From positions 576,001 through 640,000 of the forward strand of contig CAVWWD010000005.1 of NCBI GenBank assembly GCA_963758635.1: a stretch of DNA of 64,000 nucleotides, given 5' to 3'. The notes under the pieces were generated by a model. It saw only the letters and a program-made list of their open reading frames with translations. It searched no databases and was not told where the DNA came from. Positions 11,340 through 32,409 of the stretch are shown one piece after another. Source of the stretch: an uncultured Candidatus Rokubacteria bacterium. GTDB lineage: Bacteria; Methylomirabilota; Methylomirabilia; Rokubacteriales; CSP1-6. A program made the translations under genes and the position numbers. Position 1 is the first letter of the stretch; every line of letters starts with the position of its first letter.

Positions 11340-11555
11340 TCACTCGAGCACCGCGATGGTGTCGCCCTCCTGGACCGTCTGGCCCTCTGTCACCAGGATC
11401 TCCTTCACCACGCCGGCCCGGGGCGCTTCGACGGGGATCTCCATCTTCATGGACTCCAGGACGATCACGGGATCGCCGGCGCTGACGGCGTCCCCCGCCT
11501 TGCTCGTGACCTGGAAGACCACCCCGGTGATGTGAGCCTTCACCTCTTCAGGCAT
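11340..11555 (-). CDS. stand-alone biotinyl carrier domain protein
   Basis: 71 aa with ESMKM biotinylation motif; overlaps the biotin carboxylase stop. Confidence 0.9.
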   Translation of the reverse strand: MPEEVKAHITGVVFQVTSKAGDAVSAGDPVIVLESMKMEIPVEAPRAGVVKEILVTEGQTVQEGDTIAVLE

Positions 11556-12891
11556 TGAACGCTCCTTGTTCGACCATCTGGGTGTGCACCCGCCCGGATC
11601 GGAAGGCATCGCTCCGCATCACGCGCTGGTGAAACGGGATCACCGTCTTGACGCCGTCGACCTCGAACCGGTCCAGCGCCTCCTGCATGCGCACGATCGC
11701 CTCGTCGCGGGTCGCCCCGGACGCCACGAGCTTGGCGAGGAGCGAGTCGTAGTGGACGGAAACCGTCACGCCCTCGGCGATGCCGCCGTCGACGCGGATG
11801 CCCGGTCCCTCGGGCACGCGCAGCCGCGCCACCGTCCCGGGCGACGGCAGGAAGCCCCGCGCCGGGTCCTCCGCATAGATGCGGCACTCGATGGCCGAGC
11901 CGCGCTGGACGATGTCCTCCTGGCGCCACGGCAGCGCCTCTCCGGCCGCCACGCGTAGCTGGGCTTCGACCAGGTCCAGGCCCGTCACCGCCTCCGTGAC
12001 CGGATGCTCCACCTGGAGGCGGGTGTTCATCTCCAGGAAGTAGAACTCCTCGCCCTTCACCATGAACTCGAGCGTCCCCGCGTTGACGTAGCCAACCGCG
12101 CGCGCGCCCGCCACCGCGGCCGCGGTGAGCCGCGCCTTCAGGCCGGCGCGAGCGCCGGCGCGGGGCTCTCCTCGACGAGCTTCTGGTGCCGCCGCTGGAT
12201 CGAGCACTCCCGCTCGTGCACGTGCACGACGCCGCCCCCGCGGTCGCCAAAGACCTGGACCTCGACGTGCCGCGCCGCCTCCAGGTAACGCTCCACGAAG
12301 AGCGCTCCCGAGCCGAAGGCGGCCTGCGCTCGGCGCTGCGCGGTCGCGAAGGCCGACGGCAGCGCGGCGGCGTCGGCCACTCGCGCCATGCCGATACCGC
12401 CCCCGCCCGCCGCCGCCTTGAGCATGACGGGGTAGCCGACGCGAGCCGCCACCTCGGCCGCCGCCTCGACGCCATCCAGGGCGCCGTCGCTGCCCGGCAC
12501 CACCGGCAACGCCGGCCCGGGCCATCACGGTCCGGGCACCGATCTTGTCGCCCATCTGCTGGATGACCGTCCAGGACGGCCCGATGAACACGAACCCGGC
12601 CTCCTCGCACGCCTTGGCGAACCGCCAGTTCTCGGAAAGGAACCCGTAGCCGGGATGGATCGCCTCGACCCCCCGCTCGCGCGCGGCGGCGAGGACGCGG
12701 TCGATGCTGAGGTAGCTGTCACGCGCGGCCGGCGGACCGATGAGGACCGCTTCGTCGGCATCGGTCACGTGCGGCCACGCGGCATCCGCCTCGGAGTACA
12801 CCGCGACCGATCGGACGCCCTGGGCGCGGCAGGCGCGAATGATCCGGCGCGCGATCTCTCCCCGGTTGGCGACGAGGACGCTGCGCAGCAC
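11548..12891 (-). CDS. biotin carboxylase subunit (frameshifted)
   Basis: ANRGEIA, HPGYGFLSEN, KAAAGGGG and ERECSIQRRHQK (frame 12138-12509), EMNTRLQVEH and YDSLLAK. Confidence 0.92.
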   Translation of the reverse strand: MLRSVLVANRGEIARRIIRACRAQGVRSVAVYSEADAAWPHVTDADEAVLIGPPAARDSYLSIDRVLAAARERGVEAIHPGYGFLSENWRFAKACEEAGFVFIGPSWTVIQQMGDKIGARTVMARAGVAGGAGQRRRPGWRRGGGRGGGSRRLPRHAQGGGGRGRYRHGASGRRRRAAVGLRDRAAPSAGRLRLGSALRGALPGGGAARRGPGLWRPRGRRRARARAGVLDPAAAPEARRGEPRAGARAGLKARLTAAAVAGARAVGYVNAGTLEFMVKGEEFYFLEMNTRLQVEHPVTEAVTGLDLVEAQLRVAAGEALPWRQEDIVQRGSAIECRIYAEDPARGFLPSPGTVARLRVPEGPGIRVDGGIAEGVTVSVHYDSLLAKLVASGATRDEAIVRMQEALDRFEVDGVKTVIPFHQRVMRSDAFRSGRVHTQMVEQGAFNA

Positions 12892-12895
12892 GGAC

Positions 12896-13881
12896 TCAGG
12901 CGGGGCGGACGGCGTCCGGACGGGGAGACGTTCGATGGCGACGAACGCGCCATCCCTCGACGCCGAGACCCCATCGCAGCGCCAACGCCACCGAGCCGTC
13001 AGGGGCGTCGAGCCGGAGCTTCACCACCCAGTGGGCGCCGAGGCGCGCGCAGGCCACCATGCGCGGCGCCGACAGGCGCTCGCCCCCGATCGTGTCGATC
13101 GCGTCGGGTCCCCACGCGGTCCCGCGCGGCGAGCCACGGCGCGGCCCCATCCAGCCCATCGGCGACGAGGGCGGCGACCATGGCGTCGACGGTAACGGTG
13201 AGCTCCTCCGGGATCGGCCAGCGCTCCCTGGGCGCTTCGAGCCGGACGAACTCCGCCGCGTCCCCGGCATCGCTCAGGCTCTCGGCGAACACGGGCGCCC
13301 CACCCGGCGCGGCGAGCTCGTCCCCGGTGACGCCGCGGGCCGTGGCGAGCAGACCGGCAAGGCGCGCGTGCCACGCCCGCGCCCGATCCTCGCGGGCGCC
13401 GTCCCGCGAGGAGGTGCCGGAGGACCAGCTCACCTGCCGCCACGTGGCGCCGCTCGTCATCGATGACCCGAGCGAGCACCCGTCGGGTCGGCGGCTCGTA
13501 CACCTCGTTGGCGAGGTCGAGGTGGCGCTGGTAGGTACCGAGCAGGTGCGGCTTCAGCACCCGGTACACGCCGACCAGCCGCTCCACCGTCTGGCCTGGT
13601 GCCTCCGGCTCCTCCACGACGTCCATGAACGCCACGAAGGCGGGATTCGAGGGCTCCGAGACCTGGGCCTGCGCGCGCAGCTCCGGCAACCGCTTGCCGA
13701 ATGCGTCGGCGTGCTGGGCGTTGTCCCACACGTGACGCCCCATGAGGAGCTTCGCGGACAGCTCGGGCGTGAGGGCAAGCCAGCCGCCGAGGATCCGCAT
13801 CATGCGCTCGGCGGCGTAGCGATAGTTGCGGATCACCCGCGCCGACTGGTCGACCGGGAAATGTCCGTCGAGAGGATACAT
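12896..13881 (-). CDS. ferritin-like protein with degenerate diiron motif and C-terminal extension (frameshifted)
   Basis: WDNAQH and DDERRH helices. Coding-like sequence continues through frames 12999-13460 and 12896-13270 to 5 nt before the biotin carboxylase start. Confidence 0.55.
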
Positions 13882-16587: not shown

Positions 16588-17241
16588 CTACGAGCGTACG
16601 GACTGGCGCAGGGCCTCGAGCTCCTGCTCGAGCGACTGGATGCGATCCATCAGGTGCTCGACGGCGCGGGCGAGCGGATCTGGCAAGTCCACCTGGTTCA
16701 GGTCGATCTCCCCCGTCACGCGTTGGCCGTCACGGAAGGTCACCCGGCCCGGCACGCCGACCACGACCGAGTTGGCGGGCACCTCCCGCACCACCACCGA
16801 GCCTGCGCCGATCCGGCTGCCCTCGCCGATCGTGAAGGACCCGAGGACCTTGGCGCCCGCCCCGACCACGACGTTGTCGCCCAGGGTCGGGTGCCGCTTC
16901 TCGCGGCGAAGGCTCGTGCCACCGAGCGTCACGCCCTGAAGGAGGGTCACGTTCTCCCCGATCTCGGCGGTCTCGCCGATGACCACGCCCATCCCGTGAT
17001 CGATGAAGAGACCGTCGCCGAGCTTGGCCGCGGGGTGGATCTCGACGCCAGTGATGAACCGGTTCAGATGGGAGAGGAGCCGCGCCGGCGTCGCCCACCC
17101 TGACTGCCAGAGCCGGTGGGCCACTCGGTGGAACCAGATCGCGTGGACACCCGGGTAGCACATGACCACCTCGAGCGCCGACCGTGCCGCGGGGTCACGC
17201 TCGAGGACGGTTCGCACGTCCCGCTTCATGCGTTCAAACAC
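16588..17241 (-). CDS. cysE: serine O-acetyltransferase
   Basis: [32 protein letters not shown] and KRHPT. Confidence 0.97.
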
Positions 17242-17647
17242 GGCTTGCTCCTCCCTCGTCGTTGGTGGCGCGCCCGGCTTCCGCCCGTACGCGCCCGTCC
17301 CGAGCCGCAGCCCGGATGGCCGCGCTCACCACCTCGGCGGCGTGTCGACGGTCGTCGGGCAGGCCGCCCACCGCGGCCTCGACGCGGCCCGCGGGCAACT
17401 CCTCGACCTCGGACAGCGGTAGGCCCGCGATCAGCTCCGTACCCGCGCTCGACGTCGCGATGGTGGGGCCGCACCCGTAGGTCTGGAATCGCGCCTCCTC
17501 CACTCGCCCTCCGCGGATGCGGAGGTACACACGGGCCAGATCCATGCAGTCCCGATCCTCGGCCTCGCCGACGCCATCCGGGTTCCGCATCATCCCCGCG
17601 TTGCGGGGATTGCGAAAGTGATCGATGAGCGTCTGGCTGTAGCGCAC
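17234..17647 (-). CDS. IscU/NifU-N-like protein lacking the third Cys
   Basis: YS...IDHF.NPRN.G, C.D and F.TYGCG; LPPVKIHC replaced by LPDDRRHA. Confidence 0.85.
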
Positions 17648-17650
17648 TAG

Positions 17651-17728
17651 TGAGCCCCGCGCATCAGACGAATGCCGAGCGGTGGGACTGTAGAGGCCCG
17701 TGGCGGTTACCGTACCCTGCGAGGGTCA
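17651..17728 (+). mobile_element. MITE-like repeat, copy 3
   Basis: Perfect CTAG on both sides (17647-50 and 17729-32); lies between the desulfurase stop and the IscU-like start. Confidence 0.88.
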
Positions 17729-18883
17729 CTAGGCCCGCACGGGCGACGCGCTCCGGAGCTTGGCCACGAGCGTCTCCACGGCGTCGACCACGTAGTCGAT
17801 GTCCTCGACGCTGGTGCCCCGGCCGAGGGAGCACCGGACCGCCCCCATCGCCCACGGGATGGGGATGCCCATCGCCACCAGCACGTACGAGGGCTCCACG
17901 TTCCCCGAGGTGCAGGCCGACCCGGCCGACACTCCGATTCCCTTCAGATCCAGCCCGAGAACGACCGATTCGGACTCCACCCGGTGGAAGGACATGTTGC
18001 ACGTGCCGGGCAGGCGATGCGTGGGGTGCCCGTTCACCCGCACCTCGGGCACGTGGGCGCTGACGCCCTCCCAGAGGCGGTCACGGAGGCCGGTGAGCCG
18101 CACCGCCTCGGCGGCCATGTCGCGGGCGCGGACCTCGACCGCCTTGCCGAAGCCCACGACCCCCGCCACGTTCTCGGTGCCGGCGCGGCGCCGGCGCTCG
18201 TGCTCCCCGCCGTGCTGGACCGACACCATCTTCGTGCCCCGGCGCACGTAGAGACCCGCCACGCCTTTGGGCCCGTAGATCTTGTGGCTGGAGAACGACA
18301 GGAGGTCGATGCCGAGCGCGTCCAGGTCCAGCGGGAGCTTGCCGAACGTCTGAACGGCATCCACGTGGAAGGGAATCCCGTGCTCGCGCGCGACGCGCCC
18401 GATCTCCGCGACGGGCTGGACCGTGCCGACCTCGGAGTTCGCGTGCATGACCGTCACGAGGATCGTCTCCGGCCGGACCGCGCGCCGGACGTCGTCGGGA
18501 TCGACGAGGCCGTGGCCATCCACGGGTAGGTACGTCACCGTGAAGCCCTGTTGTTCGAGCGCCTGGCAGGCGCGGAGCACCGCATGGTGCTCGATGGCGG
18601 AGGTCACGATGTGCCCTCCACGTCGGGCGGTGGCCACGCCCTTGACGGCGAGGTTGTCCGACTCGGTGCCGCCGGACGTGAAGACGATCTCCTCCTTGCT
18701 CACGCGCAGGAACGACGCGATCTGCTCGCGCGCCGCGTCCAGGCCCTCACGCGCCTCGCGGCCGAAGCCGTGGACGCTCGAGGGGTTGCCGAAGCGTTCG
18801 GTGAGATACGGAAGCATCGCGTCCAGCGCCTCGGGGTGCAGGGGCGTCGATGCGTTGTGATCGAGATAGACTCGTCGGCTCAT
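17729..18883 (-). CDS. group I cysteine desulfurase (NifS/IscS-type), catalytic residues intact
   Basis: YLDHNASTP, EHHA, DAVQ, SSHKIYGPKG, RAGTEN and SAGSACTS. Confidence 0.95.
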   Translation of the reverse strand: MSRRVYLDHNASTPLHPEALDAMLPYLTERFGNPSSVHGFGREAREGLDAAREQIASFLRVSKEEIVFTSGGTESDNLAVKGVATARRGGHIVTSAIEHHAVLRACQALEQQGFTVTYLPVDGHGLVDPDDVRRAVRPETILVTVMHANSEVGTVQPVAEIGRVAREHGIPFHVDAVQTFGKLPLDLDALGIDLLSFSSHKIYGPKGVAGLYVRRGTKMVSVQHGGEHERRRRAGTENVAGVVGFGKAVEVRARDMAAEAVRLTGLRDRLWEGVSAHVPEVRVNGHPTHRLPGTCNMSFHRVESESVVLGLDLKGIGVSAGSACTSGNVEPSYVLVAMGIPIPWAMGAVRCSLGRGTSVEDIDYVVDAVETLVAKLRSASPVRA

Positions 18884-18921
18884 TGACCTCGTCCTCCTCG
18901 CGATGCTACGCTGACGCCGGC

Positions 18922-19239
18922 ATGACGCTCGCCGGACGCAAGCTCGGACTGATGCTCTCCACCGCGCCCGAGCACGCCAACCTCGCCACCGCCGTCGGCC
19001 TCTCCTCCGCGGCCCTCGATCGCGGCCTCTCCGTGTACCTGTACCTGATCGACGATGCGGTCGCCGCCGTCGAGCACCCCCTCGTGCAGGGGCTGGCCGA
19101 CCGCGGCGCCAGGCTCTTCGTGTGCGCCTACGGCTGCCAGAAGCGCCGGCGGCCGCTGTCCGACCGGGCCACGAACTGCGGCCTCGTCGTGCTCGGCGAC
19201 GTGATCAGCGGAACGGACCGCTTCCTCTCCCTCAACTGA
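18922..19239 (+). CDS. DsrE/TusD-like sulfur relay protein
   Basis: Size about 105 aa; LYLIDDAV, LFVCAYGC..R (active-site-type Cys) and GL..L...I...DRF. Confidence 0.75.
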   Translation: MTLAGRKLGLMLSTAPEHANLATAVGLSSAALDRGLSVYLYLIDDAVAAVEHPLVQGLADRGARLFVCAYGCQKRRRPLSDRATNCGLVVLGDVISGTDRFLSLN

Positions 19240-19249
19240 CGGCCGCCGC

Positions 19250-19606
19250 GTGGCCGCCAGCCCCTCGGTGCTCGTGATCGTCTCGGAGGATCCGCGCGTG
19301 TCCCACCGCGCGAGCGAGGCGCTCAGGATCGCGCTCGGCGTCGCGGCCAGCGACATCGACGTCGTCGTGGTGCTGAGCGGGCCCGCCGCGCACCTGCTCG
19401 ATGCCGACACCGACGATCTGGTGGACGGCGACGACATCGCGAAGGTCCGCGGCTCCCTCCGCACGATGGGGGTCCGCATCCACGTCGCCGCGGACGCCAT
19501 CCCGGCCGACCCCGACTGGAATGCCGAAGGGCATCCCGTCACTCCGGTGGGCCCCGCGGACGTGGCCGCGCTCCTCGAGCGAACCACGCGCTCGATCGTG
19601 TTCTGA
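19250..19606 (+). CDS. DsrF/TusC-like protein
   Basis: DP..S.RA.EALRIALG motif; middle gene of the trio. Confidence 0.65.
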   Translation: MAASPSVLVIVSEDPRVSHRASEALRIALGVAASDIDVVVVLSGPAAHLLDADTDDLVDGDDIAKVRGSLRTMGVRIHVAADAIPADPDWNAEGHPVTPVGPADVAALLERTTRSIVF

Positions 19607-19836
19607 TGCCCCGCCACCTGCACCTCCTCCGGTCCGACTCGGCCGGCGTCGCCGGCCCGGCGATCGAGGCCGGCGCGGCACGGCCGGACACCGAGATCAC
19701 CGTGGTGCTGCTCGACGACGCCCCGCCGCCCCGCCTCCCCGCGGCCGCCCGCGTGCTCACCCTCGGGGCGGGCGGCCTCGACTACGCGGCGCTCCTCGAC
19801 CTCATCTTCCAGAGCGACCACGTCGTCAGCTGGTGA
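19606..19836 (+). CDS. DsrH/TusB-like protein
   Basis: N-terminal LHLL and C-terminal LDYAALLDLI...DHVVSW typical of DsrH/TusB. Confidence 0.65.
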   Translation: MPRHLHLLRSDSAGVAGPAIEAGAARPDTEITVVLLDDAPPPRLPAAARVLTLGAGGLDYAALLDLIFQSDHVVSW

Positions 19837-19847
19837 GGCCGAGCCTC

Positions 19848-20048
19848 TCACCGGTCCCGGTGCTCCTCGACCCACCGCATCTGGATCGCCTCGAGGATCC
19901 CCTCGTTCGAGGCCTTGGGATCGTCGTTGAAGCCGGGGAGCTCGGTCACCCACCGGTGCAGGTCCGTGAAGCGCACGCCGAGGGGATCCGTGTCCGGGAA
20001 CGTCTCCATCAGGGCGATCGCGATGTCCTCGGCGTCCGACCATCTCAT
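19848..20048 (-). CDS. iscX: Fe-S assembly protein IscX
   Basis: W.D..DIAI.L, DP..VRFTDL, DDP..SNE.ILEAIQ..W. Confidence 0.95.
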   Translation of the reverse strand: MRWSDAEDIAIALMETFPDTDPLGVRFTDLHRWVTELPGFNDDPKASNEGILEAIQMRWVEEHRDR

Positions 20049-20061
20049 GGCGCGGGCTCCC

Positions 20062-20384
20062 TCACTTCGGAATCTCGACCACGACGTCGCCCTTGACCAC
20101 GGCCTGGCAGCCGAGCCGCGAGTGCAGCGTCAGGCCTTCCGCGGTGTCGAGGCGATCCTCCTCGTCCGGCTCCATCGGCGACAGGTTCGCCTCCCCTTCC
20201 CGGACGATCACGTGGCACGTCGTGCACGCGCAGCTGCCGCCGCAGTTGTGCTCGAGGTGGATGTCGTTGGCCAGGGCGATGTCGAGCAGCGAGCCCGGAC
20301 GCCCGTGGTCGGCGAGGGGGTAGGCGTCCTCGTCCACCTCGACGGTCACGTTGAGCGGCAGGAAGGTCACCCGATGCCTGGCCA

Positions 20385-20388
<4 letters not shown>
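20062..20388 (-). CDS. fdx: ISC [2Fe-2S] ferredoxin
   Basis: EH.CGGSCACTTCHV...SRLGCQ. Confidence 0.95.
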
Positions 20389-22188
<1,800 letters not shown>

Positions 22189-22211
<23 letters not shown>

Positions 22212-22779
22212 GCGTGTCCGTGTCCTCTCCCAGGGCTTCACCCAGGTCGTCGATCACCGTGCGCAGATAGGCGCGCGCGGCGAGCCGGGCCGTGAACCAC
22301 TCGAGGAGCGCGGATCGGTCGCCGGGCGCCGCCCGGTCCCACTCCGCGAAGCGCCCCACGATCGACCGATCCTCCCGTTCCCGCCACTCCACGAGGCGCC
22401 GGCGTTCGGCCTCGAGCCGCGCCCGCGTCTCGCCGTCGAGCCCGCCGGCCTTCGCCTCGAGCAGCGCTTCCTGGATCTCCATCATCTCCTCCAGGAGCTC
22501 CCGCGGCGCTCGCGGCTTCGCCTCCGCGCCCTCGCGCGTGTCCCGGCCCTCCTCGAGGCGGATCAGGTAGTCCACCCGGGCGAGCGGGTCACGCAGGGCG
22601 CGATAGGCCCGGTTCACCGCCGCGGACGCGTTCAAGGCCTGGGCCTGCGCGTCGGCCGGGGCCGCCTGATGGAAGTCCGGGTGGTGCGCGCGCGACAGCT
22701 CGTAGAAGCGCCGCTGCAGCGCGGCAGCGTCCACCTCGAGCTTCCGCGGAAGGCCGAACACCGAGAAGTAGTCGTCCAT
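22189..22779 (-). CDS. hscB: Fe-S assembly J-domain co-chaperone
   Basis: DYF..F.LP, HPD and N.AY..L.DP..R..Y. Confidence 0.93.
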
Positions 22780-22889
22780 ATCGTCACTGTCGGTCGGGCA
22801 GCCGCGCCCGAAATGAGAACGGGCCCGCCGGGGCCCGTCTCACAACTCTGGGGTCTGGCTCTCGCCCGACGCGCTACGCCACCCCCGTC

Positions 22890-23216
22890 CTACGCCGTGA
22901 ACGAGGTTCCACAGCCGCACGTCGATTTCGCCTGGGGGTTGACGAAGGTGAAGCCCCCCGTCAGCCCCTCCGTCACGTAGTCGAGCGTGATGCCGTTCAG
23001 GTAGAGGTAGCTCTTGGCGTCGCAGACCACAGGGACGCCATCGATCTCGAACTTCTTGTCGTGCTTGCCGACCTCGCTATCGAACTCCAGCGAGTACGAC
23101 AGGCCGGAGCAGCCTCCGCCCTTCACACCCATTCGAAGATAAACGTTCTCCAGGTTCTGCTCCTTGAGGAGCTTTCTCACCTGGGTCGCCGCCTTCTCCG
23201 TCAACGCCAGCGCCAT
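22890..23216 (-). CDS. iscA: A-type Fe-S carrier
   Basis: GGGCSGLSY and NP.AKSTCGCG.SF. Confidence 0.95.
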   Translation of the reverse strand: MALALTEKAATQVRKLLKEQNLENVYLRMGVKGGGCSGLSYSLEFDSEVGKHDKKFEIDGVPVVCDAKSYLYLNGITLDYVTEGLTGGFTFVNPQAKSTCGCGTSFTA

Positions 23217-23244
23217 GTCGTTTTACCTCCCCGTTCGCTGCGTC

Positions 23245-23667
23245 CTAGGCTTGGGATGGCGCCGCGCCCGAGGGCGCTTCCGACGCCGTCCACTTGTCCT
23301 TGTAGTCGGCGAGGGCAGCCTTGATCGCGTCCTCGGCGAGCACGGAGCAGTGGATCTTCACCGGCGGAAGCTTCAGCTCGCTGACGATGTCGGTGTTCTT
23401 GATCTTCGCCGCCTCGTCCACCGTGCGGCCCTTCAGCCACTCCGTGGCGAGGCTCGATGAGGCGATGGCGCTGCCGCAGCCGAACGTCTTGAACTTCGCG
23501 TCCTCGATGACCCCCGTCTCGATGTTCACCTTGATCTGGAGCTTCATGACGTTGCCGCACTCCGGCGCACCCACCAGCCCCGTCCCCACGCCCGGGGTGC
23601 TCTTGTCGAACGACCCGACGTTGCGGGGGTTGCTGTAGTGATCGACCACCTTCTCGCTGTAGGACAT
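23245..23667 (-). CDS. iscU: Fe-S scaffold IscU (Asp39->Asn variant)
   Basis: YSEKVVDHY.NPRN, GAPECGNVM, FGCGSAIASS and LPPVKIHCS. Confidence 0.97.
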   Translation of the reverse strand: MSYSEKVVDHYSNPRNVGSFDKSTPGVGTGLVGAPECGNVMKLQIKVNIETGVIEDAKFKTFGCGSAIASSSLATEWLKGRTVDEAAKIKNTDIVSELKLPPVKIHCSVLAEDAIKAALADYKDKWTASEAPSGAAPSQA

Positions 23668-23690
23668 GTTGGCTCGCCTCCCCGTCGCCG

Positions 23691-24917
23691 CTATTCGGCC
23701 TTCCAGTGGATGGACTTCAGATCCACGCCCTCTTTCGCCAGCTCGTAGAGCGGCGACATCTCACGCAGCCGGTGCACCACCTCCACCGTCCGTCCCGCCA
23801 CGTGGTCCACCTCGTCCTCCGTGGTGAACCGATGCACCCCGAAGCGGATCGACGAGTGGGCGAGCTCGGAGTCCACGCCCAGCGCCGAGATCACGTACGA
23901 CGGCTCGAGGGTCGCCGACGTGCAGGCGGAGCCGGAGGACAGGGCGACTTCCTTGTTCAGCCCCATGAGCACGGACTCGCCCTCGACGTAGGCGAACGAC
24001 ACGTTCAGATTGTGGGGGAGACGGCGCTCGGGATGTCCGTTGAGGAACGCCTCATCGACCTTGGACAGGATGGCCTCCTGCAGGCGGTCCCGGAGAACGG
24101 CCATGCGCTTGCTCTCCTCCGGCATGACCTCGCGGCAGATCTCCGCCGCGCGCCCGAAGCCCACGGCGAGAGGCACGGGGATCGTGCCGGAGCGCATGCC
24201 GCGCTCGTGTCCACCACCGTCCATCATGGCGGACAGGCGCACCCGCGGCCCCTTGCGGCGGACGTACAGCGCGCCCACGCCCTTCGGCCCGTACAGCAGG
24301 TGGGCGGTGCACGAGAGCAGATCGATGCCCATGCCCTCCACGTCGACCGGGACTTTGCCGACCGCCTGGGTGGCATCGGTATGGAAGATGATGCCCTTCT
24401 CCTTGGCGAGCTTGCCGATGTCCGCCACCTGCTGGACGGTCCCGATCTCGTTGTTCGCGAACATCACGGAGAGCAGGATGGTCTTCGGCGTGATGGCGGC
24501 CCGGAGCGCCTCCACGTCGACGAGGCCGTCCCGTCCGACGCCCACGTAGCTCACCTCGAACCCCTGGCGTTCGAGGCGCTTGCAGACGTCGAGGCCCGCG
24601 CGCTGCTCGATGCGGGTCGTGACGATGTGGTTGCCCTTCTCCCGGTACATCTCGGATACGCCCTTGAGAGCCAGGTTGATGGCCTCGGTGCCACCCGACG
24701 TGAAGATGATCTCCTTCGCGTCGCGGGCCCCGATCAGGCCGGCCAGCTGCTCACGGGCGCGGTCCACGCCGGATTCCGCCTCCCAGCCGAAGGAGTGGTT
24801 GCGGCTCGCCGGGTGACCGAACCGCTCGGTGAAGTACGGCAGCATGGCCTCGACCACGCGGGGATCCGCGGGGGTCGTGGACTGACTGTCCATGAAGATC
24901 GGGAACCTGACGGCCAT
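23691..24917 (-). CDS. iscS: IscS homologue lacking the PLP-binding Lys
   Basis: IscS-specific features (SRNHSFGW, SSGSACTSATLEPSYV, LREMSPLYE) but TAHLLYGPKG and EQRA at the PLP site. Confidence 0.92.
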   Translation of the reverse strand: MAVRFPIFMDSQSTTPADPRVVEAMLPYFTERFGHPASRNHSFGWEAESGVDRAREQLAGLIGARDAKEIIFTSGGTEAINLALKGVSEMYREKGNHIVTTRIEQRAGLDVCKRLERQGFEVSYVGVGRDGLVDVEALRAAITPKTILLSVMFANNEIGTVQQVADIGKLAKEKGIIFHTDATQAVGKVPVDVEGMGIDLLSCTAHLLYGPKGVGALYVRRKGPRVRLSAMMDGGGHERGMRSGTIPVPLAVGFGRAAEICREVMPEESKRMAVLRDRLQEAILSKVDEAFLNGHPERRLPHNLNVSFAYVEGESVLMGLNKEVALSSGSACTSATLEPSYVISALGVDSELAHSSIRFGVHRFTTEDEVDHVAGRTVEVVHRLREMSPLYELAKEGVDLKSIHWKAE

Positions 24918-24931
24918 GGTTCTGCCTCTCC

Positions 24932-25375
24932 TTATCTAATGTGGCTCAGCCGGGTCACGGGCGCCGGAACGAGGGGCTCCGCGACCAGCTCGGCCAGGCT
25001 CATCGTGTCCAGCAGGCTGCTGATGCTCTTCTGGATCTTCTGGACGGGCCCCCGCAGGTTGCATCGCTCGTACTGCGGGCAGTCGTCCGTGGTCAAGCAA
25101 CTGACGATGCGCACCGGACCCTCGAGCGCCCTGACGACCTCCCCGACGGTGATCGCCTCCTGCGGCCGGGCCAGCACGTAGCCGCCCTTGGGACCGTTGT
25201 GGCTGACGATCAGGCTCTTTTTCGCCAGCTTCTGGAGGATCTTGGCGAGGAGCTCGCCGGGGATCTTGAATTCCTCGGCGATACGCTTGGCGCTGACCGC
25301 GCCGTCCGGCGATTGAGCCGCGATGTAGTGCACGGCCATCAGTCCGTAGTCGGCGCGCTTGGTGAATCTCAGCAT
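24932..25375 (-). CDS. iscR: Rrf2 family Fe-S regulator IscR
   Basis: G.KGGY.LAR, ALEG and three Cys (C-x5-C-x5-C); first gene of the isc operon. Confidence 0.85.
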   Translation of the reverse strand: MLRFTKRADYGLMAVHYIAAQSPDGAVSAKRIAEEFKIPGELLAKILQKLAKKSLIVSHNGPKGGYVLARPQEAITVGEVVRALEGPVRIVSCLTTDDCPQYERCNLRGPVQKIQKSISSLLDTMSLAELVAEPLVPAPVTRLSHIR

Positions 25376-25403
25376 CCCTGATCTCTTCTCCCTGCCGGCC
25401 ATT

Positions 25404-25469
25404 GTATCCGACCATTTCGGTCGGCGACCATCAGAGTCGGAGTTTGCCAGGGCGATCGGCGCGTGTCAA
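25404..25469 (-). promoter_or_regulatory. isc promoter with two tandem IscR type-1-like boxes
   Basis: TTGACA-N17-CAAACT (extended TG); boxes GTATCCGACCATTTCGGTCGGCGAC (25404-25428) and CGACCATCAGAGTCGG (25425-25440). Confidence 0.72.
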
Positions 25470-26680: not shown

Positions 26681-28033
26681 CTAGTTGCCCTTCTCCTGCT
26701 GCGACTTCAACTTGCGCAGGTGCAGGCGCGCCACGTCCACCCAGTCCTTCTCCGAGGGGAGAGCGCTGGCGAGCTGGATGTACCGCTCCCAGAGGGCAAT
26801 GGCCTCCTTGGCGTCGACCTTCTCGTACACGAGGGCGAGGTTGTAGAGGCCGCCGGTGTTCTTGGCGTCCAGCTCGACCACCTTCTTGTACTCGACGATC
26901 GCCTCGGGGTAGAGGCCCTTGTCCTCGTACACCTCGGCCAGGCCCATCCGCGCGTCGAGGAACATCGGATCGAGCTCGATGGCCTTCTTGTACGCGGTCA
27001 CCGACTCGTAGTAGAGCCCCTTCTCCGCGTAGTAGATCTTGCCCAGGCTCACGTGGACGCGTGGGTTCATGGGGTTGAAGTCCAGGGCCTTGCGGTACGC
27101 GGTGATCGCTCCGTCCACGTTGCCCTTGGAGGCCTGTGCCTCGCCGAGACCGACGTAGGCGTCGGCGTAGAAGGGCCGGAGCTCGAGAGCCTTGGTGTAG
27201 GCTTCGACGGCTTGCTCGAACAGGCGACGGGGCACGATCAGCAGCAGATCGCCGAGCGCCTTGTAGGGCTCGGGGTAGCTCGGGTCGAGCTGGGTGGAGG
27301 CCCGGAACTGCGCCGCGGCCTTCCAGCGATTGCCGAGCGCCTGGTGGACGCTGCCCAGCGAAAACTGGGCCACGACGAACTGCGGATCGATCTCCACGGC
27401 GCGGCTCAGGAGCTCGACCGCCGCCTCGTTGGACTCCTGGTTGCCGCGCAGCGCGGCGGCCTGGCCGCGCACGAAGCTCTCGAAGGCCCGGAGGGAACGG
27501 GTGGGGCTCGCCGACTTCTGGACCCGGGCGAGCTCGGCCTCCGTCGCCGGAACCTTGAGCGCGCGGAGGTAGGCGACGGACACGCCCGGCAAGCTCGCCA
27601 GGAGCTGCCCCTCGGGCACGGTCACGGCGTCGAGCGTGCCGCGGTCCGCGCGCTCGCCCTTGATCTCGACGAAACGCGGCTGCAACGCGAGCTCGCCGCC
27701 GGCGCGCCGGACCTCGCCGTAGACCGCCACGTCGGCGCGGACGCTCCGGGCGGTCTGCGCGACGTTCTGCTCGTCCCAGGCGTCCGGCAGCGACATCTGC
27801 CGGAGGCGCCCACGGTCGATCTGCACGAGCGACGGCACGTGGACGAGGGCGAGCTCGAGCGACTGGGCGATCCCCTCGCCCACCCATTGCTCCTCCCGTC
27901 CGAGGCCCGCCGTGTTGAACGGAAGGACCAGGACGGTGCGCGCCTTGACGGCGGCGAGCGCCGGGCCCGCGCTGAGGACGAGGAACAGCGTCCCGAGGAT
28001 TGCGAGGCTAGACCGTCTGTCGCGGAGTCCCAT
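26681..28033 (-). CDS. exported TPR-repeat protein with N-terminal TolB-N/FlgO-like domain
   Basis: Signal peptide, VLVLPF.., and about six 34-aa TPR repeats (A...Y.KAL...P....A...LG). Confidence 0.85.
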   Translation of the reverse strand: MGLRDRRSSLAILGTLFLVLSAGPALAAVKARTVLVLPFNTAGLGREEQWVGEGIAQSLELALVHVPSLVQIDRGRLRQMSLPDAWDEQNVAQTARSVRADVAVYGEVRRAGGELALQPRFVEIKGERADRGTLDAVTVPEGQLLASLPGVSVAYLRALKVPATEAELARVQKSASPTRSLRAFESFVRGQAAALRGNQESNEAAVELLSRAVEIDPQFVVAQFSLGSVHQALGNRWKAAAQFRASTQLDPSYPEPYKALGDLLLIVPRRLFEQAVEAYTKALELRPFYADAYVGLGEAQASKGNVDGAITAYRKALDFNPMNPRVHVSLGKIYYAEKGLYYESVTAYKKAIELDPMFLDARMGLAEVYEDKGLYPEAIVEYKKVVELDAKNTGGLYNLALVYEKVDAKEAIALWERYIQLASALPSEKDWVDVARLHLRKLKSQQEKGN

Positions 28034-31000
28034 TGTCCCGGCCCTCCTTCGGCGTCCTGGTCACGAGCCGTGTCCACAGCGCGGTCACGAGACCGGGGCC
28101 GACCCTTCGGAGCGCGATCTCGGGGATCAGCAGCACGGCAACCAACCCGACGAGCCACGGCCAGATGTCCAGCGTGAGCCGCGACTTCCGCCGCGCCGAC
28201 AGGAACGCATCCCGGGGCTGTCCCGCGACGCCGCCGCCCGTCAGCTCGGACAGCTCGCGGAGGAGCGACTCGTCTACCCCGAGGTCCCGGAGTTCCTTGG
28301 AATACGGTACCACCAGTCCGGCGAGCTGTGACCCCACCATCTGGTCCCCGCGGCGCTGCGCCATCCCGACGAGGTACGCGCCCTCCTGGGAAGCGGGGAA
28401 CCGGCCCCGGTAGCGGCCCGGACCCACCTGCTCGAGCTCGACCACCGTGCGCTGCTTGTCGGGCGAGACGACACCCACCTGGGAGTCGAGGAAGTTGATG
28501 AACTCGCCCTTCGGGTCGATGGCGTCGACCACGACCTCGCCCCGGTCGTCGGCCTGGCTGACGGTGGCGACGGTGTCGGTGCGGGTGCCGCTCCGGAGCG
28601 TCCACCGCGTGAGCTGCGACCAGAACTTGTTGAAGCCGCCCCATCGGAGCCACAGCACCGCCCACTTCGCCTTGGCGTCGGACGTGAACGCCACCGAACG
28701 GCCGAGCCCGTAGCGCCACGTCGCGAGGAGCGGGTCCTCCTGGTGCGTCATCAGCACCATCTCCGCCGTGCCCTTGAGCGAGGTGGCGACGTACCCGCCC
28801 AGGGGCGGCGCCTCCTTCCACTCGATGTCCTGGATGGCCTCGTGGCCCGGCGCGCCCACGCTGGGCTTGAAGGGCTGCTCGACCAGCGAGGACTTCGACG
28901 CGAGCTGGGTCTCGAGCGTGAAGATGCGCGGGATCGTGCTGTCGTCTTCCGTGTAGTAGAAGCGCCCGCGGCCCCACTTGGCGACGTCGAACATGAGCTG
29001 GGCATCGGCGTCCTTGCCGATGGCCACCGTCGAGACCGTGATCTTGTCCTTCGCCATCCGCCGGAGGAGGCCGGAGAAGTCCCCACGCGTCATCTGACCG
29101 TCGGACAGGAAGATGACGTGCTTCAGGAGCGCGGGCCGATCGAACAGGACCTGGTAGGACTCCTTGAGCGCGGGATAGCCGTCCGTGCCCCCGCCCGCCT
29201 TGATCGTGGAGATGGCGGTGTGGATGGCCTGCTTGTCCTTGGCCGGGCGCACCGGGGAGTCCCAGATGAACTCGGTGTCCCAGCTCATCACACCCACCTC
29301 GTTCCGGTCGTCGAGCAGGTCGACGACGAGGTGCGACGCCTCCTTGGCGATGTCGAGCTTGGTGACCTTGCTGTCGGTGGTCATCGCCATGGAGCCGGAG
29401 CGGTCGATGGACAGGACGACGGCGAGGCTCGGGATCTCGAGCTTCTGCTTGACCTCCATCGTCACGGGCAGCGCTTCCTCGAGCGGCGTCCGGTAGTAGC
29501 CCCCGAGGCCGAAGCTCTCCTCGCCGCCTAGCATCATGAGCCCGCCGCCGTGATCGCGGACGTAGTCCCGGATGCTCTCCATCTGCTTCTTGTTCAGCTT
29601 GAGCGAGGAGACGTTGGACAGGATGACGCCGTCGTACTTCTGGAGCCCGGCGACGTCCTTCGGAATGCGGTCGGCCTCGACGAGGTCCACGTCGATGTGC
29701 TGCGAGCGGAGGGCCGAGGCCAGGCTCTGACCCTGGGCGCGCTCCTTCTCGGCGAGCAGCACGGTCGGCCGGCCGCGTACCACGATCGTGCCGAGCGCGC
29801 GGTTGTTCTCGTCGATCGTGTCGCCCTCGACCTCGATGTGCGCCTGGTAGACGTGGATCCCGCTGTGCTCGAGCGACTGCCGGTACGTGTACACGTTCTT
29901 GCCCGGCGTGAGACGCACGACCTGGGAGCCCAGGAACTCTCCGTTCCGGAAGAGCGCCAGGCGCCCCTGCGTCTCCGCCTGGCTCCACGCCACCACCTTG
30001 GCCTGGAACGGCTCGCCGTACTTCACCTCCGACGGCAGCACCATGGACTCCACGACCACTTCCTGCTTGAACGTGAGCGGGGCGGGCACGTAGAAGATGT
30101 CGGCGCCGGCGTCCTTGGCCGCCTGGGCCACGGCGAGGGCGTTGCCCGCGTTCTGGCGGCCGTCGGTGAGCAGGACGAAGCGGTTCGCGTGGCCGGGCGG
30201 CGCGGTGGCGAGCGCGAGCTGGAGGGCCTGGGCCAGGTTCGTGCCCCGCCCGCCCACCTTCGCCTGCGGGACGCTCGATCTTCGCGCCCGAGCGGAGCGG
30301 CTGGTCCACCACCGCCTCCTCGCCGAACACGATGAGGCCAGCCTGGTCGCGCGGCTGCATGGCCCCCGCGGCCTGCGCGACGAACCGATAGGCGTTCTCC
30401 CGCGCGGCCAGGCTCACGCTGTCCGACACGTCGAGCAGGAAGAGCACGTTGAGCTGATCGACCCACCGCGGGATCACCGGCCTGACGAGCGCGACGATGA
30501 GAATGGCGACGAGGACGCCCCGCATGCCCAGGGCCCAGCGGTCGGCGCGGGTCGGCGGAACGGAGAGCCGACCCGCGGTCTGGCGCCGCCAGTAGAGCAG
30601 GGCCTCGACGATGAACACCGCGATGGCGAACATCACGAAGAACGGCCAGAGCTCTCGCGGCACGGGCACCGGCGCCGCCTCGGGGCGCGCCCCCTCCACG
30701 AACGCGGGGACGGGCCGCGGCGTCAGCTCGGATTCCTCGGCGTTCATGAGGTTGACGGCGACCTTCGTCTCGCCGCGCGAGGTGACCACGCGGTACACGC
30801 CGACCTCGTCGGTGTCGGTGAAGCTCGCGAGCCCGCGCGTGACCTGCGCCTGCACGGTGTGCCCCGACGGCGTCGTCACCGTGGCGGTGGACACCCCGTG
30901 CTCGACGGGGAGCAGGATCGGCTGCCCCGCCTGCAGCTGGAGACTCTCCTGATCGAGGCCCGCCGGGTGCAACCAGCGGAGGCTCTTCGAGAGCATCAGC

Positions 31001-32409
31001 GGGAAGGCCACGCGCAGCGGGAAGTCGCTCTTGAAGAGATCGAAGCCGAAGAAGACGGCCTTGCGCTGCTGCTCCTCCAGAAGGTAGATGAGCGGGCCGC
31101 CGGCGGCCTCGACGAGCGTCTTTCCCGCGGCGAGCGGGCGCACGCGCAGCGCGTCCTCGATCGTCACCTTGGCGAAGTCGATCTGGCGCATGATCGGATG
31201 CGCCCGATCCCAGTCCATGATCACGGGCGAGTCGAAGCGTCCGAGCACCTCGAGCGGGACGTCCCCCGGGACCGCGTTCACGAGCACGAAGCGCCCGTTG
31301 CCGACCTTCGTGGGGTTGACGCTGTCGATCACGACGGCATCGAAGCCATCCATGCCCCCCTGGTAGGCGTCCGGCGTCCGGACCTCGAGCTTGACCTGCG
31401 GATCGCTCTTGAGCGCCTTCTCCAGGAACATGTTCCCCGCGCTCACGAGGAGCACCGCGATGGCCCGCGGCGGCGGGATGACGGCGAAGGCCATGTTGTC
31501 GGCGGTCAGGTCGTCGGTCACGTCGATCCGCGCCCGCACCACCCCGCCGCCCGGATGGCTGAACGGGAGGACGAGGGCCCGCCGCACCTGCGGCTCGAGC
31601 ATCAGCTCCTTCTCGGCGATGAGGGTGTCGTCCAGCCGCAGCGTGAGCGTGAAGCGCTGGGGCTCGGTCGAGAAGTTCGCCATCGACAGGAAGGCCTGCG
31701 AGTCGAACGACCCGAAGTAGTTCCGGCGCACCGCCATGCTCGTGATCGCCACGTTGCGCCCGCGGGTGCCCACGCCCGACCAGCGCACGCGGGCGTCCTC
31801 GGCCTGGCCCCGCAGCGCGTCGGGATGCGCGCCGTCGGTGAACACGTGCACCTCGGCGCGCGGGTCGGCGCCCACCAGAGAGCGCGCGGTCCGCACGGCG
31901 TCCTCGAGCCGGCTCGGGATGTCACGGGGGTGCGCGGAGCGGATCGCGGAGACGACCCGGTCGCGGTCCCGCGTGAACGGCGCGAGCACCTTGGGCTGGA
32001 TGCCCGCCTCGATGACCATCGCCTCGGCGCCCTCGCCGAGCCGGCTCACCAGGCCGAGCGCGGCGCGCTGGGCCTGGACGAAGCGCGTCGGCGAGGTGTC
32101 GGTGGCCTTCATGGAGGCCGAGCTGTCGAGCACGACCACGATGCGCTTGGCCCCGTGGCCCATCACGGTCACAGTGGGCCGCGCCAGCGCGAGGGACAGC
32201 GCGATCAGCGCGAGGATCTGCAAGAGGATCAGGGGGTCGCGCTGCAGTCGCTGGAAGAAGGCCGAGGCCTCGCGGTCGCGGAGGGCCGACTCCCAGAGGA
32301 GCAGGCTCGACACGGTGCGGGGCCGCCGCCGGACCTTCAGGAAGTACAGCAGCAGGAGCGGCACGGCGAGCGTCGACAGCAGCAGCGCGAGCGGAGAGAG
32401 GAAACTCAT
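28008..32409 (-). CDS. large membrane vWA protein (BatA N-terminus, three vWA domains, GATase-like region); one frameshift near 30260
   Basis: MSFLSP...VSS..LW BatA motif; MIDAS motifs DSSASM, DVSDSV and DRSGSM; GG..SFG.GGY..TP.E..LPV. Confidence 0.8.

Follow-up and report, generated by a model that had tools for sequence, protein, structure and literature searches.

A conserved IscS without the Schiff-base lysine, probably an adaptor, in the isc operon of soil Rokubacteria

The isc operon of the studied Rokubacteria genome encodes an IscS protein, IscS1, which lacks both Lys206, the residue that forms the Schiff base with PLP, and the stacking His104, while Cys328 and the surfaces that bind its partners are kept; it is therefore likely to be a non-catalytic hub, and probably a conserved adaptor without catalysis. 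The loss of the lysine had been claimed in an earlier note on this DNA and is confirmed as K206L; two further changes absent from that note, H104Q and D79I, come on top of it. The preferred reading, which is held tentatively and is drawn from sequence, is that IscS1 may be a dead adaptor or hub of a working ISC system, whose persulfide would be loaded by TusA/DsrE carriers fed mainly by a second, intact desulfurase.

Three adjacent units make up the locus: the isc operon on the minus strand, a trio of E-F-H genes on the plus strand, and desulfurase 2, IscU-like 2 and cysE on the minus strand. Gene order, strands and the 38-bp gap all agree with what the earlier note had read from the sequence. 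The features are listed here by their positions in the window, that is, the whole stretch of 64,000 nucleotides that was analysed.

16588..17241, minus strand: CysE serine O-acetyltransferase (TIGR01172 above cut-off)
17234..17647, minus strand: IscU-like 2; retains Cys-x-Asp, Cys and His but has Ala in place of the third Cys, without LPPVK
17729..18883, minus strand: desulfurase 2, type I, NifS/MIS-like; catalytic residues intact
18884..18921, no strand: divergent gap of 38 bp between the desulfurase 2 start and the E start
18922..19239, plus strand: DsrE/TusD-like subunit, Cys68 aligned to the TusD active Cys (profile, alignment)
19250..19606, plus strand: DsrF/TusC-like subunit without Cys (Pfam DsrE family, E = 1.3e-7, above cut-off)
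19606..19836, plus strand: DsrH/TusB-like small subunit without Cys (linked to DsrH through a relative)
19848..20048, minus strand: IscX (TIGR03412 above cut-off)
20062..20388, minus strand: [2Fe-2S] ferredoxin, ISC-like (Pfam Fer2 above cut-off)
20385..22211, minus strand: HscA, open frame extending to 22241 (TIGR01991 above cut-off)
22189..22779, minus strand: HscB (TIGR00714 above cut-off)
22890..23216, minus strand: IscA/ErpA-type carrier (TIGR00049 above cut-off)
23245..23667, minus strand: IscU1; three Cys, His and LPPVK intact (TIGR01999 above cut-off)
23691..24917, minus strand: IscS1, IscS clade, with K206L, H104Q and D79I (profile matches, alignment, tree, structure model)
23922-23924, 24297-24299 and 24603-24605, within iscS1: codons of the Cys328 equivalent, K206L and H104Q, respectively
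24932..25402, minus strand: Rrf2-family regulator, IscR-like, C-x5-C-x5-C (Pfam Rrf2 and TIGR00738 above cut-off; relatives aligned)

The minus-strand isc genes run in the order Rrf2/IscR-like regulator, iscS1, iscU1, iscA, hscB, hscA, fdx, iscX, and this full set together with an intact scaffold identifies the operon as an ISC operon. Its completeness, as claimed earlier, holds for the gene set; the regulator and the ferredoxin fall under the strict cut-offs for their ISC types, the former at 81.6 bits against 207.55 for TIGR02010 (IscR), the latter with fdx_isc as its top NCBIfam model. The regulator start is likely near 25375. The CGD and LPPVKIHC motifs of IscU1 are present in all 35 loci that reach iscU1.

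At the lysine position IscS1 reads TAH-L-LYGPKG (codon CTG), where IscS and NFS1 read H-K-IYGPKG, and the cysteine of SSGSAC is kept despite the loss. The protein otherwise has the type I fold and the clade membership of an IscS: it scores above the cut-off of NF010611 and under that of TIGR02006, it falls in a clade with E. coli IscS with a support of 100, and its structure model (pLDDT 83.9) has a TM of 0.91-0.93 to NFS1 and E. coli IscS. According to PMC9978102 (section 3.2), E. coli IscS loses its activity as H104Q, Q183E or K206A, although PLP binding and cysteine adduct formation persist in the K206A protein. By analogy with these mutants, IscS1 is predicted to have no desulfurase activity.

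All 39 family genomes chosen by similarity have Leu (25) or Met (14) at position 206 together with Gln104, Ile79 and Cys328, and five additional family genomes carry the same motifs, so that the pattern holds in 44 of 44 genomes read, a subset of the 93 in the family; four different codons occur at position 206. IscS1 is under purifying selection: its dN/dS is about 0.12 (60 pairs), against 0.08-0.10 in lysine-bearing orthologues, and in the same nine loci it is better conserved than desulfurase 2 (83% against 74%). An independent contig from a public run (X13) is identical to positions 24037-24317 with 0 differences, Leu codon included; this contig and the 44 agreeing genomes rule out sequencing error as the cause of K206L. 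The view that this is a relic operon in decay, or an assembly error, could appeal to apparent frameshifts elsewhere in the assembly and to the substitution D39N in IscU1, which alignment with relatives finds to be private to the studied genome, but it is refuted, with virtually no probability left to it, by the agreement of the family through different codons, by the low dN/dS, by the independent contig and by the absence of a visible SUF back-up from most family genomes (SufBD was found in 20 of 93, against 37 of 45 genomes in other orders of the class).

The surfaces that dock IscU, Fdx and IscX, evaluated with interface residue sets taken from PMC2854127 and PMC11302665, are fixed in IscS1 (R39, R116, R220, R223, R225, W45, D52, R55, R237 and the IscU-facing helix residues), and desulfurase 2 is without R39, R223 and the C-terminal end of IscS. 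Fixation, dN/dS and docking residues together support the earlier proposal that IscS1 is an adaptor, probably without activity. The TusA contacts are altered at two sites (E49 to Ala, Gly or Ser, and D65R), which counts against TusA docking; in E. coli IscS, E49A abolishes TusA binding (PMC2854127). The pocket for PLP and substrate is also fixed for the most part (T76, N155, D180, Q183, H205, T243, R354), and this weighs against a pure adaptor, which need not keep such residues.

The trio stands in position and order as a DsrEFH-like set, with the qualification that E scores 16.9 bits against a Pfam DsrE cut-off of 22.7 and that H has no direct Pfam match, its identity depending on a profile of its relatives that matches the H protein of genome G011, a Pfam DsrH, at 5.6e-14. 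In G011 the related trio adjoins yeeE and tusA. With three homologous subunits, the order E-F-H and an equivalent of the active cysteine on E, the trio appears from its sequence to be of the DsrEFH/TusBCD kind, like the type II (YTD) trio (PMC13293266), A. vinosum DsrEFH and E. coli TusBCD. One cysteine on E is general (52 of 53 homologues) and aligns with that of TusD; unlike those systems, the present one has two extra cysteines on E, Cys72 and Cys86, which besides Cys68 are fixed within the order, its subunits are shortened, it is fixed between two Fe-S loci, and it is without the synteny with tusA and yeeE that marks the YTD type, both genes lying elsewhere in the genome. E is present in 88 of 93 family genomes. 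Strict pairing with DsrC/TusE was checked and does not occur: DsrC/TusE is present in only 4 of 111 order genomes, so that the trio is uncoupled from it, and DsrC was not found in the studied genome (87% complete). DsrE proteins of this kind have been tested with TusA as partner, and TusA-DsrE sulfur transfer in vitro runs both ways (PMC13293266); a direct hand-over of sulfur from DsrE to IscS1 is unsupported, TusA being encoded outside the window. The divergent gap, in which no sigma-70-like match was found, is about 36-42 bp long at most loci of the family and about 70-140 bp in sister families.

Desulfurase 2 is intact, with His, Asp, Gln, Lys and Cys in 19 of 19 sequences; all 40 loci have its lysine motif, and it occurs in 100 of 111 order genomes. 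In the tree it groups loosely with the enzyme of genome G058, and the top models for it and for IscU-like 2 (IscU2), NifS and clostridial NifU, are both under cut-off. The third Cys of IscU2 is Ala or Ser in all copies aligned or read, and the protein lacks the three Cys and LPPVK of an IscU/NifU scaffold, as had been noted. The minimal NifS/IscU pairs of G058 and G001 in the same class, which we take to be of the MIS type, have a U protein with three Cys and LPPNK, whereas IscU2 is dispensable in some relatives: of 40 loci, six (L053, L054, L063, L070, L428, L435) cleanly lack it between the genes for desulfurase 2 and CysE.

Linkage of the three units holds across the order, and since sister families keep Lys206 with an unchanged gene order, the layout is older than the lysine loss, which is recent in the Rokubacteria family. 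In six genomes that have Lys, His104 and Gln183 together, the trio and desulfurase 2 are present and IscU2 is degenerate already. Sister families whose IscS1 is intact likewise have the trio, desulfurase 2 and the tusA pair described below; the presence of these parts is thus independent of the loss. One sister genus has H104Q and Q183E instead of the lysine loss. The idea of "complementary losses" as a single design does not survive the retention of Lys206 beside the same parts and the loci that have no IscU2. Three genomic patterns had been named as capable of refuting the proposal (a normal lysine in orthologous operons, unlinked units in relatives, strict pairing of the trio with tusE/mnmA or dsrABC); none refutes it outright, and one holds by half.

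By tblastn neither tusA nor mnmA is in the window, as stated earlier, yet both are encoded elsewhere in the genome. The tusA gene adjoins a second lysine-less paralogue on contig C8, which has Asn-Asp at the lysine position in 41 of 41 copies and is of the Archaeoglobus (SND) type; this tusA-linked paralogue is found in 89 of 93 family genomes and 0 of 45 outside the order, and tusA is adjacent to it in 43 of 44 loci. As the neighbour of tusA, this paralogue may be its only partner, which speaks against a route from TusA to IscS1. YeeE/YedE (59 of 61) counts for a carrier route, but it is common, and 7 of the 14 genomes used as controls have it too. CyaY was looked for in the studied genome and not found. 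In E. coli an IscS2-IscU-TusA complex forms, and TusA competes with IscU and reduces cluster yield; no literature report was found of TusA reloading any IscS.

The statement that no such system had been described was too strong, since A. fulgidus IscS, described as lysine-less and inactive in a 2022 review (PMC8918507), and M. acetivorans isc1 (iscU1 MA0807, iscS1 MA0808, DsrE-family MA0809, SirA/TusA-like MA0810) precede it. The review names the sulfur source of an inactive IscS as an open question. The A. fulgidus IscS-IscU pair (PDB 4EB5, 4EB7, 4HVK, 4R5F) resembles the present one in a type I fold without the PLP lysine, a retained Cys and an intact IscU, but it has Asp199 and keeps His104 (Leu/Met and Gln in IscS1), it belongs to a separate clade, and it is a minimal iscSU, whereas IscS1 sits with E. 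coli IscS, without the SND motif, in a full ISC (Fdx, HscAB, IscA, IscX) with an active desulfurase 5 kb off; the true Archaeoglobus-type gene of the studied genome is the C8 paralogue. In M. acetivorans a lysine-less IscS likewise lies by IscU and DsrE (PMC7585200), but there a single DsrE and TusA stand together without accessory ISC genes, whereas here it is the trio that adjoins the operon, with tusA at another place in the genome. E. coli iscRSUA-hscBA-fdx-iscX shares gene order and docking residues with the studied operon; its IscS is active and a donor to TusA, whereas IscS1 is predicted to be inactive.

Independently of the Rokubacteria case, Aquificaceae and Caldimicrobium also evolved a lysine-less IscS. 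Five Aquificaceae genomes have the lysine-less gene as their sole desulfurase-family gene, and neither a lysine-bearing desulfurase nor SufBD was found in these five; its protein is changed at Q183 and R354 too. TusA neighbours the Aquificaceae gene in 0 of 15 loci and adjoins iscU instead, and in Caldimicrobium the order is tusA-iscS-iscU. Archaeoglobus-type loci have TusA in 33, DsrE in 18 and IscU in 33 of 40, against 0, 0 and 4 of 15 lysine-bearing control loci, a comparison in which the controls come from one phylum, related loci are not independent and the TusA and DsrE profiles are seeded partly from the test loci. It is possible, if doubtful, that lysine-less IscS proteins are repeatedly evolved, reverse-running persulfide adaptors through which a TusA/DsrE pool feeds IscU, and that they arose independently three times or more (in the Archaeoglobus type, in Aquificaceae/Caldimicrobium and in the Rokubacteria ISC), with a probable fourth loss in H104Q with Q183E; the Rokubacteria would then have a complete mitochondria-like ISC whose sulfur step is outsourced, the catalytic and scaffold roles of IscS being separated in nature.

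Under the preferred reading, desulfurase 2 would make persulfide, with CysE backing the cysteine supply, and TusA, encoded beside the second paralogue, would carry it. The DsrEFH-like complex, which shares the divergent gap with desulfurase 2, would act as a sulfur store or buffer in exchange with TusA, and imported sulfane sulfur could enter there as well. Docked TusA would reload Cys328 of IscS1, opposite to the direction of transfer in E. coli, and the Cys loop would hand the sulfur to IscU1, after which Fdx, IscX and HscAB would act as usual; IscU2 may be no scaffold but an accessory that desulfurase 2 can do without, accepting its sulfur or activating it. The TusA ties of other lysine-less IscS proteins (Archaeoglobus type, M. 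acetivorans isc1, Caldimicrobium) count for such a carrier route, and the position of tusA outside the studied locus counts against the reloading of IscS1 by TusA.

The sulfur may instead pass directly from desulfurase 2 to IscU1, or through a heterodimer with IscS1, which would serve as an Fdx/IscX platform and perhaps a cluster ligand, while the trio and TusA serve Moco and tRNA. Desulfurase 2 is adjacent and nearly universal, the two proteins complement each other in their surfaces, one being fit for catalysis and the other for docking, the layout with its trio predates the loss, and T243, a residue which in IscS serves the cofactor of the partner subunit, is fixed in IscS1. Against this, desulfurase 2 is without the C-terminal IscU-binding end, and the five Aquificaceae genomes could not follow such a rule; in addition, the Cys loop of IscS is charged at its own subunit's site, so that a heterodimer would not simply charge IscS1. 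Direct supply is on balance unlikely.

Somewhat more unlikely still is the model put forward for A. fulgidus IscS in PMC8918507, under which inorganic sulfide or polysulfide would feed the ISC system, IscS1 would only scaffold IscU1 and contribute a cluster ligand through Cys328, and desulfurase 2 would be a housekeeping enzyme (tRNA thiolation, cofactors). Here the Aquificaceae are favourable, since an active partner is not always present, as is the genome's C-type MnmA, a type that draws sulfur directly from desulfurases. H2S also rescues an E. coli iscS deletion via IscU under anaerobic conditions (PMC13015791), but that rescue needs no IscS protein and so leaves the strict conservation of IscS1 unexplained; Fdx, which serves to reduce persulfide, is moreover kept together with its docking patch, and the public runs carrying the studied DNA are mostly from soil, bog and rhizosphere, not sulfidic springs. 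It is quite improbable that IscS1 retains a slow or different lysine-independent PLP/PMP chemistry, or acts as a cysteine-binding sensor that tunes ISC output: the fixed pocket, the PLP binding and cysteine adducts of E. coli K206A and the sole homologues of some Aquificaceae would fit, but H104Q or K206A alone kills the E. coli enzyme, A. fulgidus IscS is inactive, the Aquificaceae protein is altered at Q183 and R354, and the only family-specific lysine gain in IscS1, at position 112, lies on a surface patch.

The lysine loss is recent and fixed in an abundant, widespread family of soil Rokubacteria, inside an E. coli-like ISC that mostly stands without SUF, and close relatives with intact or differently inactivated orthologues provide built-in controls. 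If the preferred reading is true, there would be a second sulfur entry point into ISC, the docking and loop functions of IscS would be selectable without catalysis, and annotation by similarity would miscall such genes as active desulfurases, the sole Aquificaceae copies included.

In the window, a complete isc operon lies on the minus strand, three small DsrEFH-like genes (E, F and H) lie on the plus strand, and a second minus-strand unit consists of a desulfurase (desulfurase 2) followed by an IscU-like gene (IscU2) and cysE, with a 38-bp gap separating desulfurase 2 from E; gene order, strands and gap length are as the earlier note had described them. That note had also reported an IscS without the Schiff-base lysine in the complete operon. 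This protein (IscS1), which is alignable over its full length to human NFS1 and E. coli IscS, indeed carries Lys206->Leu, together with His104->Gln and Asp79->Ile (E. coli-style numbering), and retains Cys328; an independent public contig shows 0 differences across the Leu codon, and the protein adopts the IscS fold in an AlphaFold model (pLDDT 83.9, TM 0.91-0.93). A search for a replacement lysine found no family-specific one except at surface position 112. A promoter scan of the locus gave no match better than shuffled sequences, and parts of the locus are covered by RNA-library contigs, a coverage which is no proof of transcription. At window positions 11548-13881 and 27622-32409, biotin-carboxylase-like and VWA-domain genes are apparently split over frames, which suggests indel errors in the assembly. 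At 23551-23553, the scaffold IscU1 has Asn at the conserved Asp39, an allele or an assembly error; a co-evolved partner change allowing the IscS1 cysteine to ligate the cluster is ruled out, because all relatives read have Asp.

The lysine loss in IscS1 is a family trait under selection; judging by how close homologues are named, the organism is a Rokubacterium. Residue 206 is Leu in 25 and Met in 14 of 39 family genomes (the best 29 matches among 93 other family genomes, the genome itself and nine chosen ones), and Gln104, Ile79 and Cys328 occur in all 39; five further family genomes have the same substitutions. Eighty motif-scan loci, selected by the substitution itself, were kept out of this count, and motif-scan loci are present in the 75-sequence residue table and in the dN/dS pairs. 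Four unpublished genomes (G029, G047, G057 and G100) are inside the tallies of IscS1, SufBD, the tusA-linked paralogue, E, desulfurase 2, IscU2 and YeeE/YedE, one of them (G057, locus L027) among the 39; no claim depends on unpublished genomes alone. The dN/dS of IscS1 is 0.12 (60 pairs); orthologues that have the lysine give 0.10 and 0.08. Over the same nine loci, IscS1 is more conserved (83%) than desulfurase 2 (74%). A sequencing error or a pseudogene is ruled out by the family-wide fixation, the dN/dS and the independent contig.

In E. coli IscS, H104Q, Q183E and K206A are each without desulfurase activity, and PLP binding persists in K206A (PMC9978102, in excerpt); by analogy with these variants, IscS1 is very probably inactive. 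Its partner surfaces are largely in place when compared with the interfaces in the available parts of PMC2854127 and PMC11302665: the basic patch for Fdx, IscX and CyaY (R39, R116, R220, R223, R225) and the IscU-facing helices are retained, as are the TusA contacts W45, D52, R55 and R237, with E49 and D65 changed. Desulfurase 2 has all catalytic residues and is without R39, R223 and the C-terminal end. SufBD occurs in only 20 of 93 family genomes, compared with 37 of 45 from other orders, and was not found in the genome itself, which is 87% complete; most of the family therefore appears to assemble its clusters with the isc operon that contains IscS1. We infer that IscS1 works as the hub of this system.

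The relatives indicate the order of events. The three units are linked and share one gene order in all 20 order-level loci, and in further loci as far as contigs extend. On whether orthologous isc operons have a normal lysine, a point raised by the earlier note, the answer is divided: the 39 family genomes counted all have Leu or Met, whereas six sister-family genomes (L056-L060, L427) keep Lys, His and Gln. Because the gene order is shared with these lysine-keeping families, the trio, desulfurase 2 and the degenerate IscU2 are older than the lysine loss, and the idea of complementary losses in the earlier note is too neat. IscU2 is moreover dispensable in some relatives: with a presence in 90 of 111 genomes, and clean deletions in 6 of 40 loci, it is ruled out as an obligatory link. 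Desulfurase 2 occurs in 100 of 111. A sister genus keeps Lys and has H104Q and Q183E in the 10 fully read genomes (L051-L055, L422, L424, L426, L428, L429), each of these being a change that inactivates E. coli IscS. IscS1 falls inside the IscS clade, and the sister genus is nested among His-bearing sister genera in both trees (quick searches, support 96-97); these sequence comparisons suggest two separate inactivations, with a single origin of H104Q not rejected (AU test, p 0.20). In other orders, 18 IscS-like genes all have Lys and no accessory genes alongside. In another family of the class (L032, L034), an IscU-like protein with Ser for the first Cys (GAPASGD) stands beside a lysine-bearing IscS.

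E and F are DsrE-family proteins, and H is linked to DsrH through a homologue in genome G011, where a related trio (L123, G011:C31:3786-11535) lies in an rrf2-cysK-moeB-EFH-yeeE-tusA/rhodanese-tusA-moaD-like-cysM-JAB sulfur-assimilation cluster. E is present in 88 of 93 family genomes; its three cysteines are fixed in the order, and only Cys68, aligned with the active Cys of TusD, is general (52/53). DsrC/TusE occurs in 4 of 111 genomes and the MnmA of the genome is C-type (by comparison with the accessible part of PMC7025502), so the trio is neither the TusBCD-TusE-MnmA tRNA relay of E. coli nor a Dsr relay, and the strict co-occurrence with tusE/mnmA or dsrABC that the earlier note considered is not seen. 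In type II DsrEFH, the nearest studied complex, TusA is the sole specific donor and transfer is bidirectional (PMC13293266, in part).

Outside the window, tusA immediately precedes the gene for another desulfurase homologue without the lysine; A. fulgidus IscS is the best match of this paralogue in the PDB:

G000:C8:1089408-1090861 (L073, L079), tusA with a lysine-less desulfurase homologue of the A. fulgidus type (Asn-Asp motif), no iscU

This pair is frameshifted in the assembly and intact in most relatives. The paralogue occurs in 89/93, 8/11 and 1/1 genomes of the order's three families and in 0/45 outside, and tusA adjoins it in 43 of 44 loci; YeeE/YedE is present in 59 of 61 order genomes. 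An intact type I desulfurase beside an NrtR-like regulator and NAD-synthesis genes (G000:C2:62119-63312) is a possible extra sulfur donor, and a SufU-like and SufS-like pair without SufBD lies beside molybdenum-cofactor accessory (CoxD/E-like) genes (G000:C5:145117-146696).

A motif scan of 39 of 64 parts of the GTDB contigs gave at least 119 loci, comprising Rokubacteria-type isc operons and a separate Aquificaceae/Caldimicrobium group. Caldimicrobium has the order tusA-iscS-iscU, with a lysine-bearing desulfurase elsewhere in the genome; in two of the loci L130, L154 and L173, all tusA-iscS(Leu)-iscU, a second, divergent IscU-like gene follows. In the family of genome G151, matches came from 30 genomes, 21 of which had just one; all 12 distinct main matches read have Leu, and the nine second matches comprise five with Lys and four degenerate. 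Four Aquificota genomes (L256, L268, L270, L272) have a more degenerate homologue with Trp at 183 and no His-Lys motif. Five Aquificaceae-group genomes (G164, G165, G172, G157, G178; L441-L445, L456-L460) have one desulfurase-type gene, which is lysine-less, and one IscU; a PP-loop tRNA-thiolase-like gene comes after iscU, and SufBD, searched by family, was not found in them. Among these genomes, at least two of three loci read have tusA at a distance of two genes from iscU. Among Archaeoglobus-type metagenome loci (flanks for 80 of 120, 40 long enough), TusA, DsrE and IscU lie within 1.5 kb in 33, 18 and 33 of 40, compared with 0, 0 and 4 of 15 in a small, single-phylum set of lysine-bearing controls.

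In the preferred chain, desulfurase 2 would charge TusA with persulfide, the EFH trio would buffer the carrier sulfur, and a carrier, most plausibly TusA, would reload Cys328 of the IscS1 hub; as a whole, this is put tentatively, at slightly under an even chance. Against it count the position of tusA, unlinked to the isc locus, the altered contacts E49 and D65, the competition between TusA and IscU in E. coli (PMC11302665, in part) and the largely retained cofactor pocket of IscS1. Direct supply by desulfurase 2, or a heterodimer of it with IscS1, is rather unlikely. Sulfide may instead feed ISC, as proposed for A. fulgidus (PMC8918507 and PMC13015791, in the parts available); this is improbable here. 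Residual chemistry or cysteine sensing by IscS1, with which the retained pocket is consistent and to which the inactive E. coli variants are opposed, has a slim chance.

The earlier note knew of no described system of this kind. An inactive IscS paired with IscU is already known from A. fulgidus (through reviews, PMC8918507, in part), on which the available parts of PMC13066941 and PMC8300815 hold nothing further, and clustering of a lysine-less IscS with DsrE and TusA is given in a supplement legend for M. acetivorans isc1, which has the same make-up as the Archaeoglobus-type cassettes (PMC7585200, in part). Among top-ranked matches in the open-access literature, no published account of the lysine-less IscS of Rokubacteria or Aquificaceae was found. 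The novelty is that a true IscS, encoded in a full ISC operon, has lost its lysine recently and independently, and that some relatives have intact and others differently inactivated orthologues; an outside sulfur supply predating this loss would be what let IscS1 give up catalysis.
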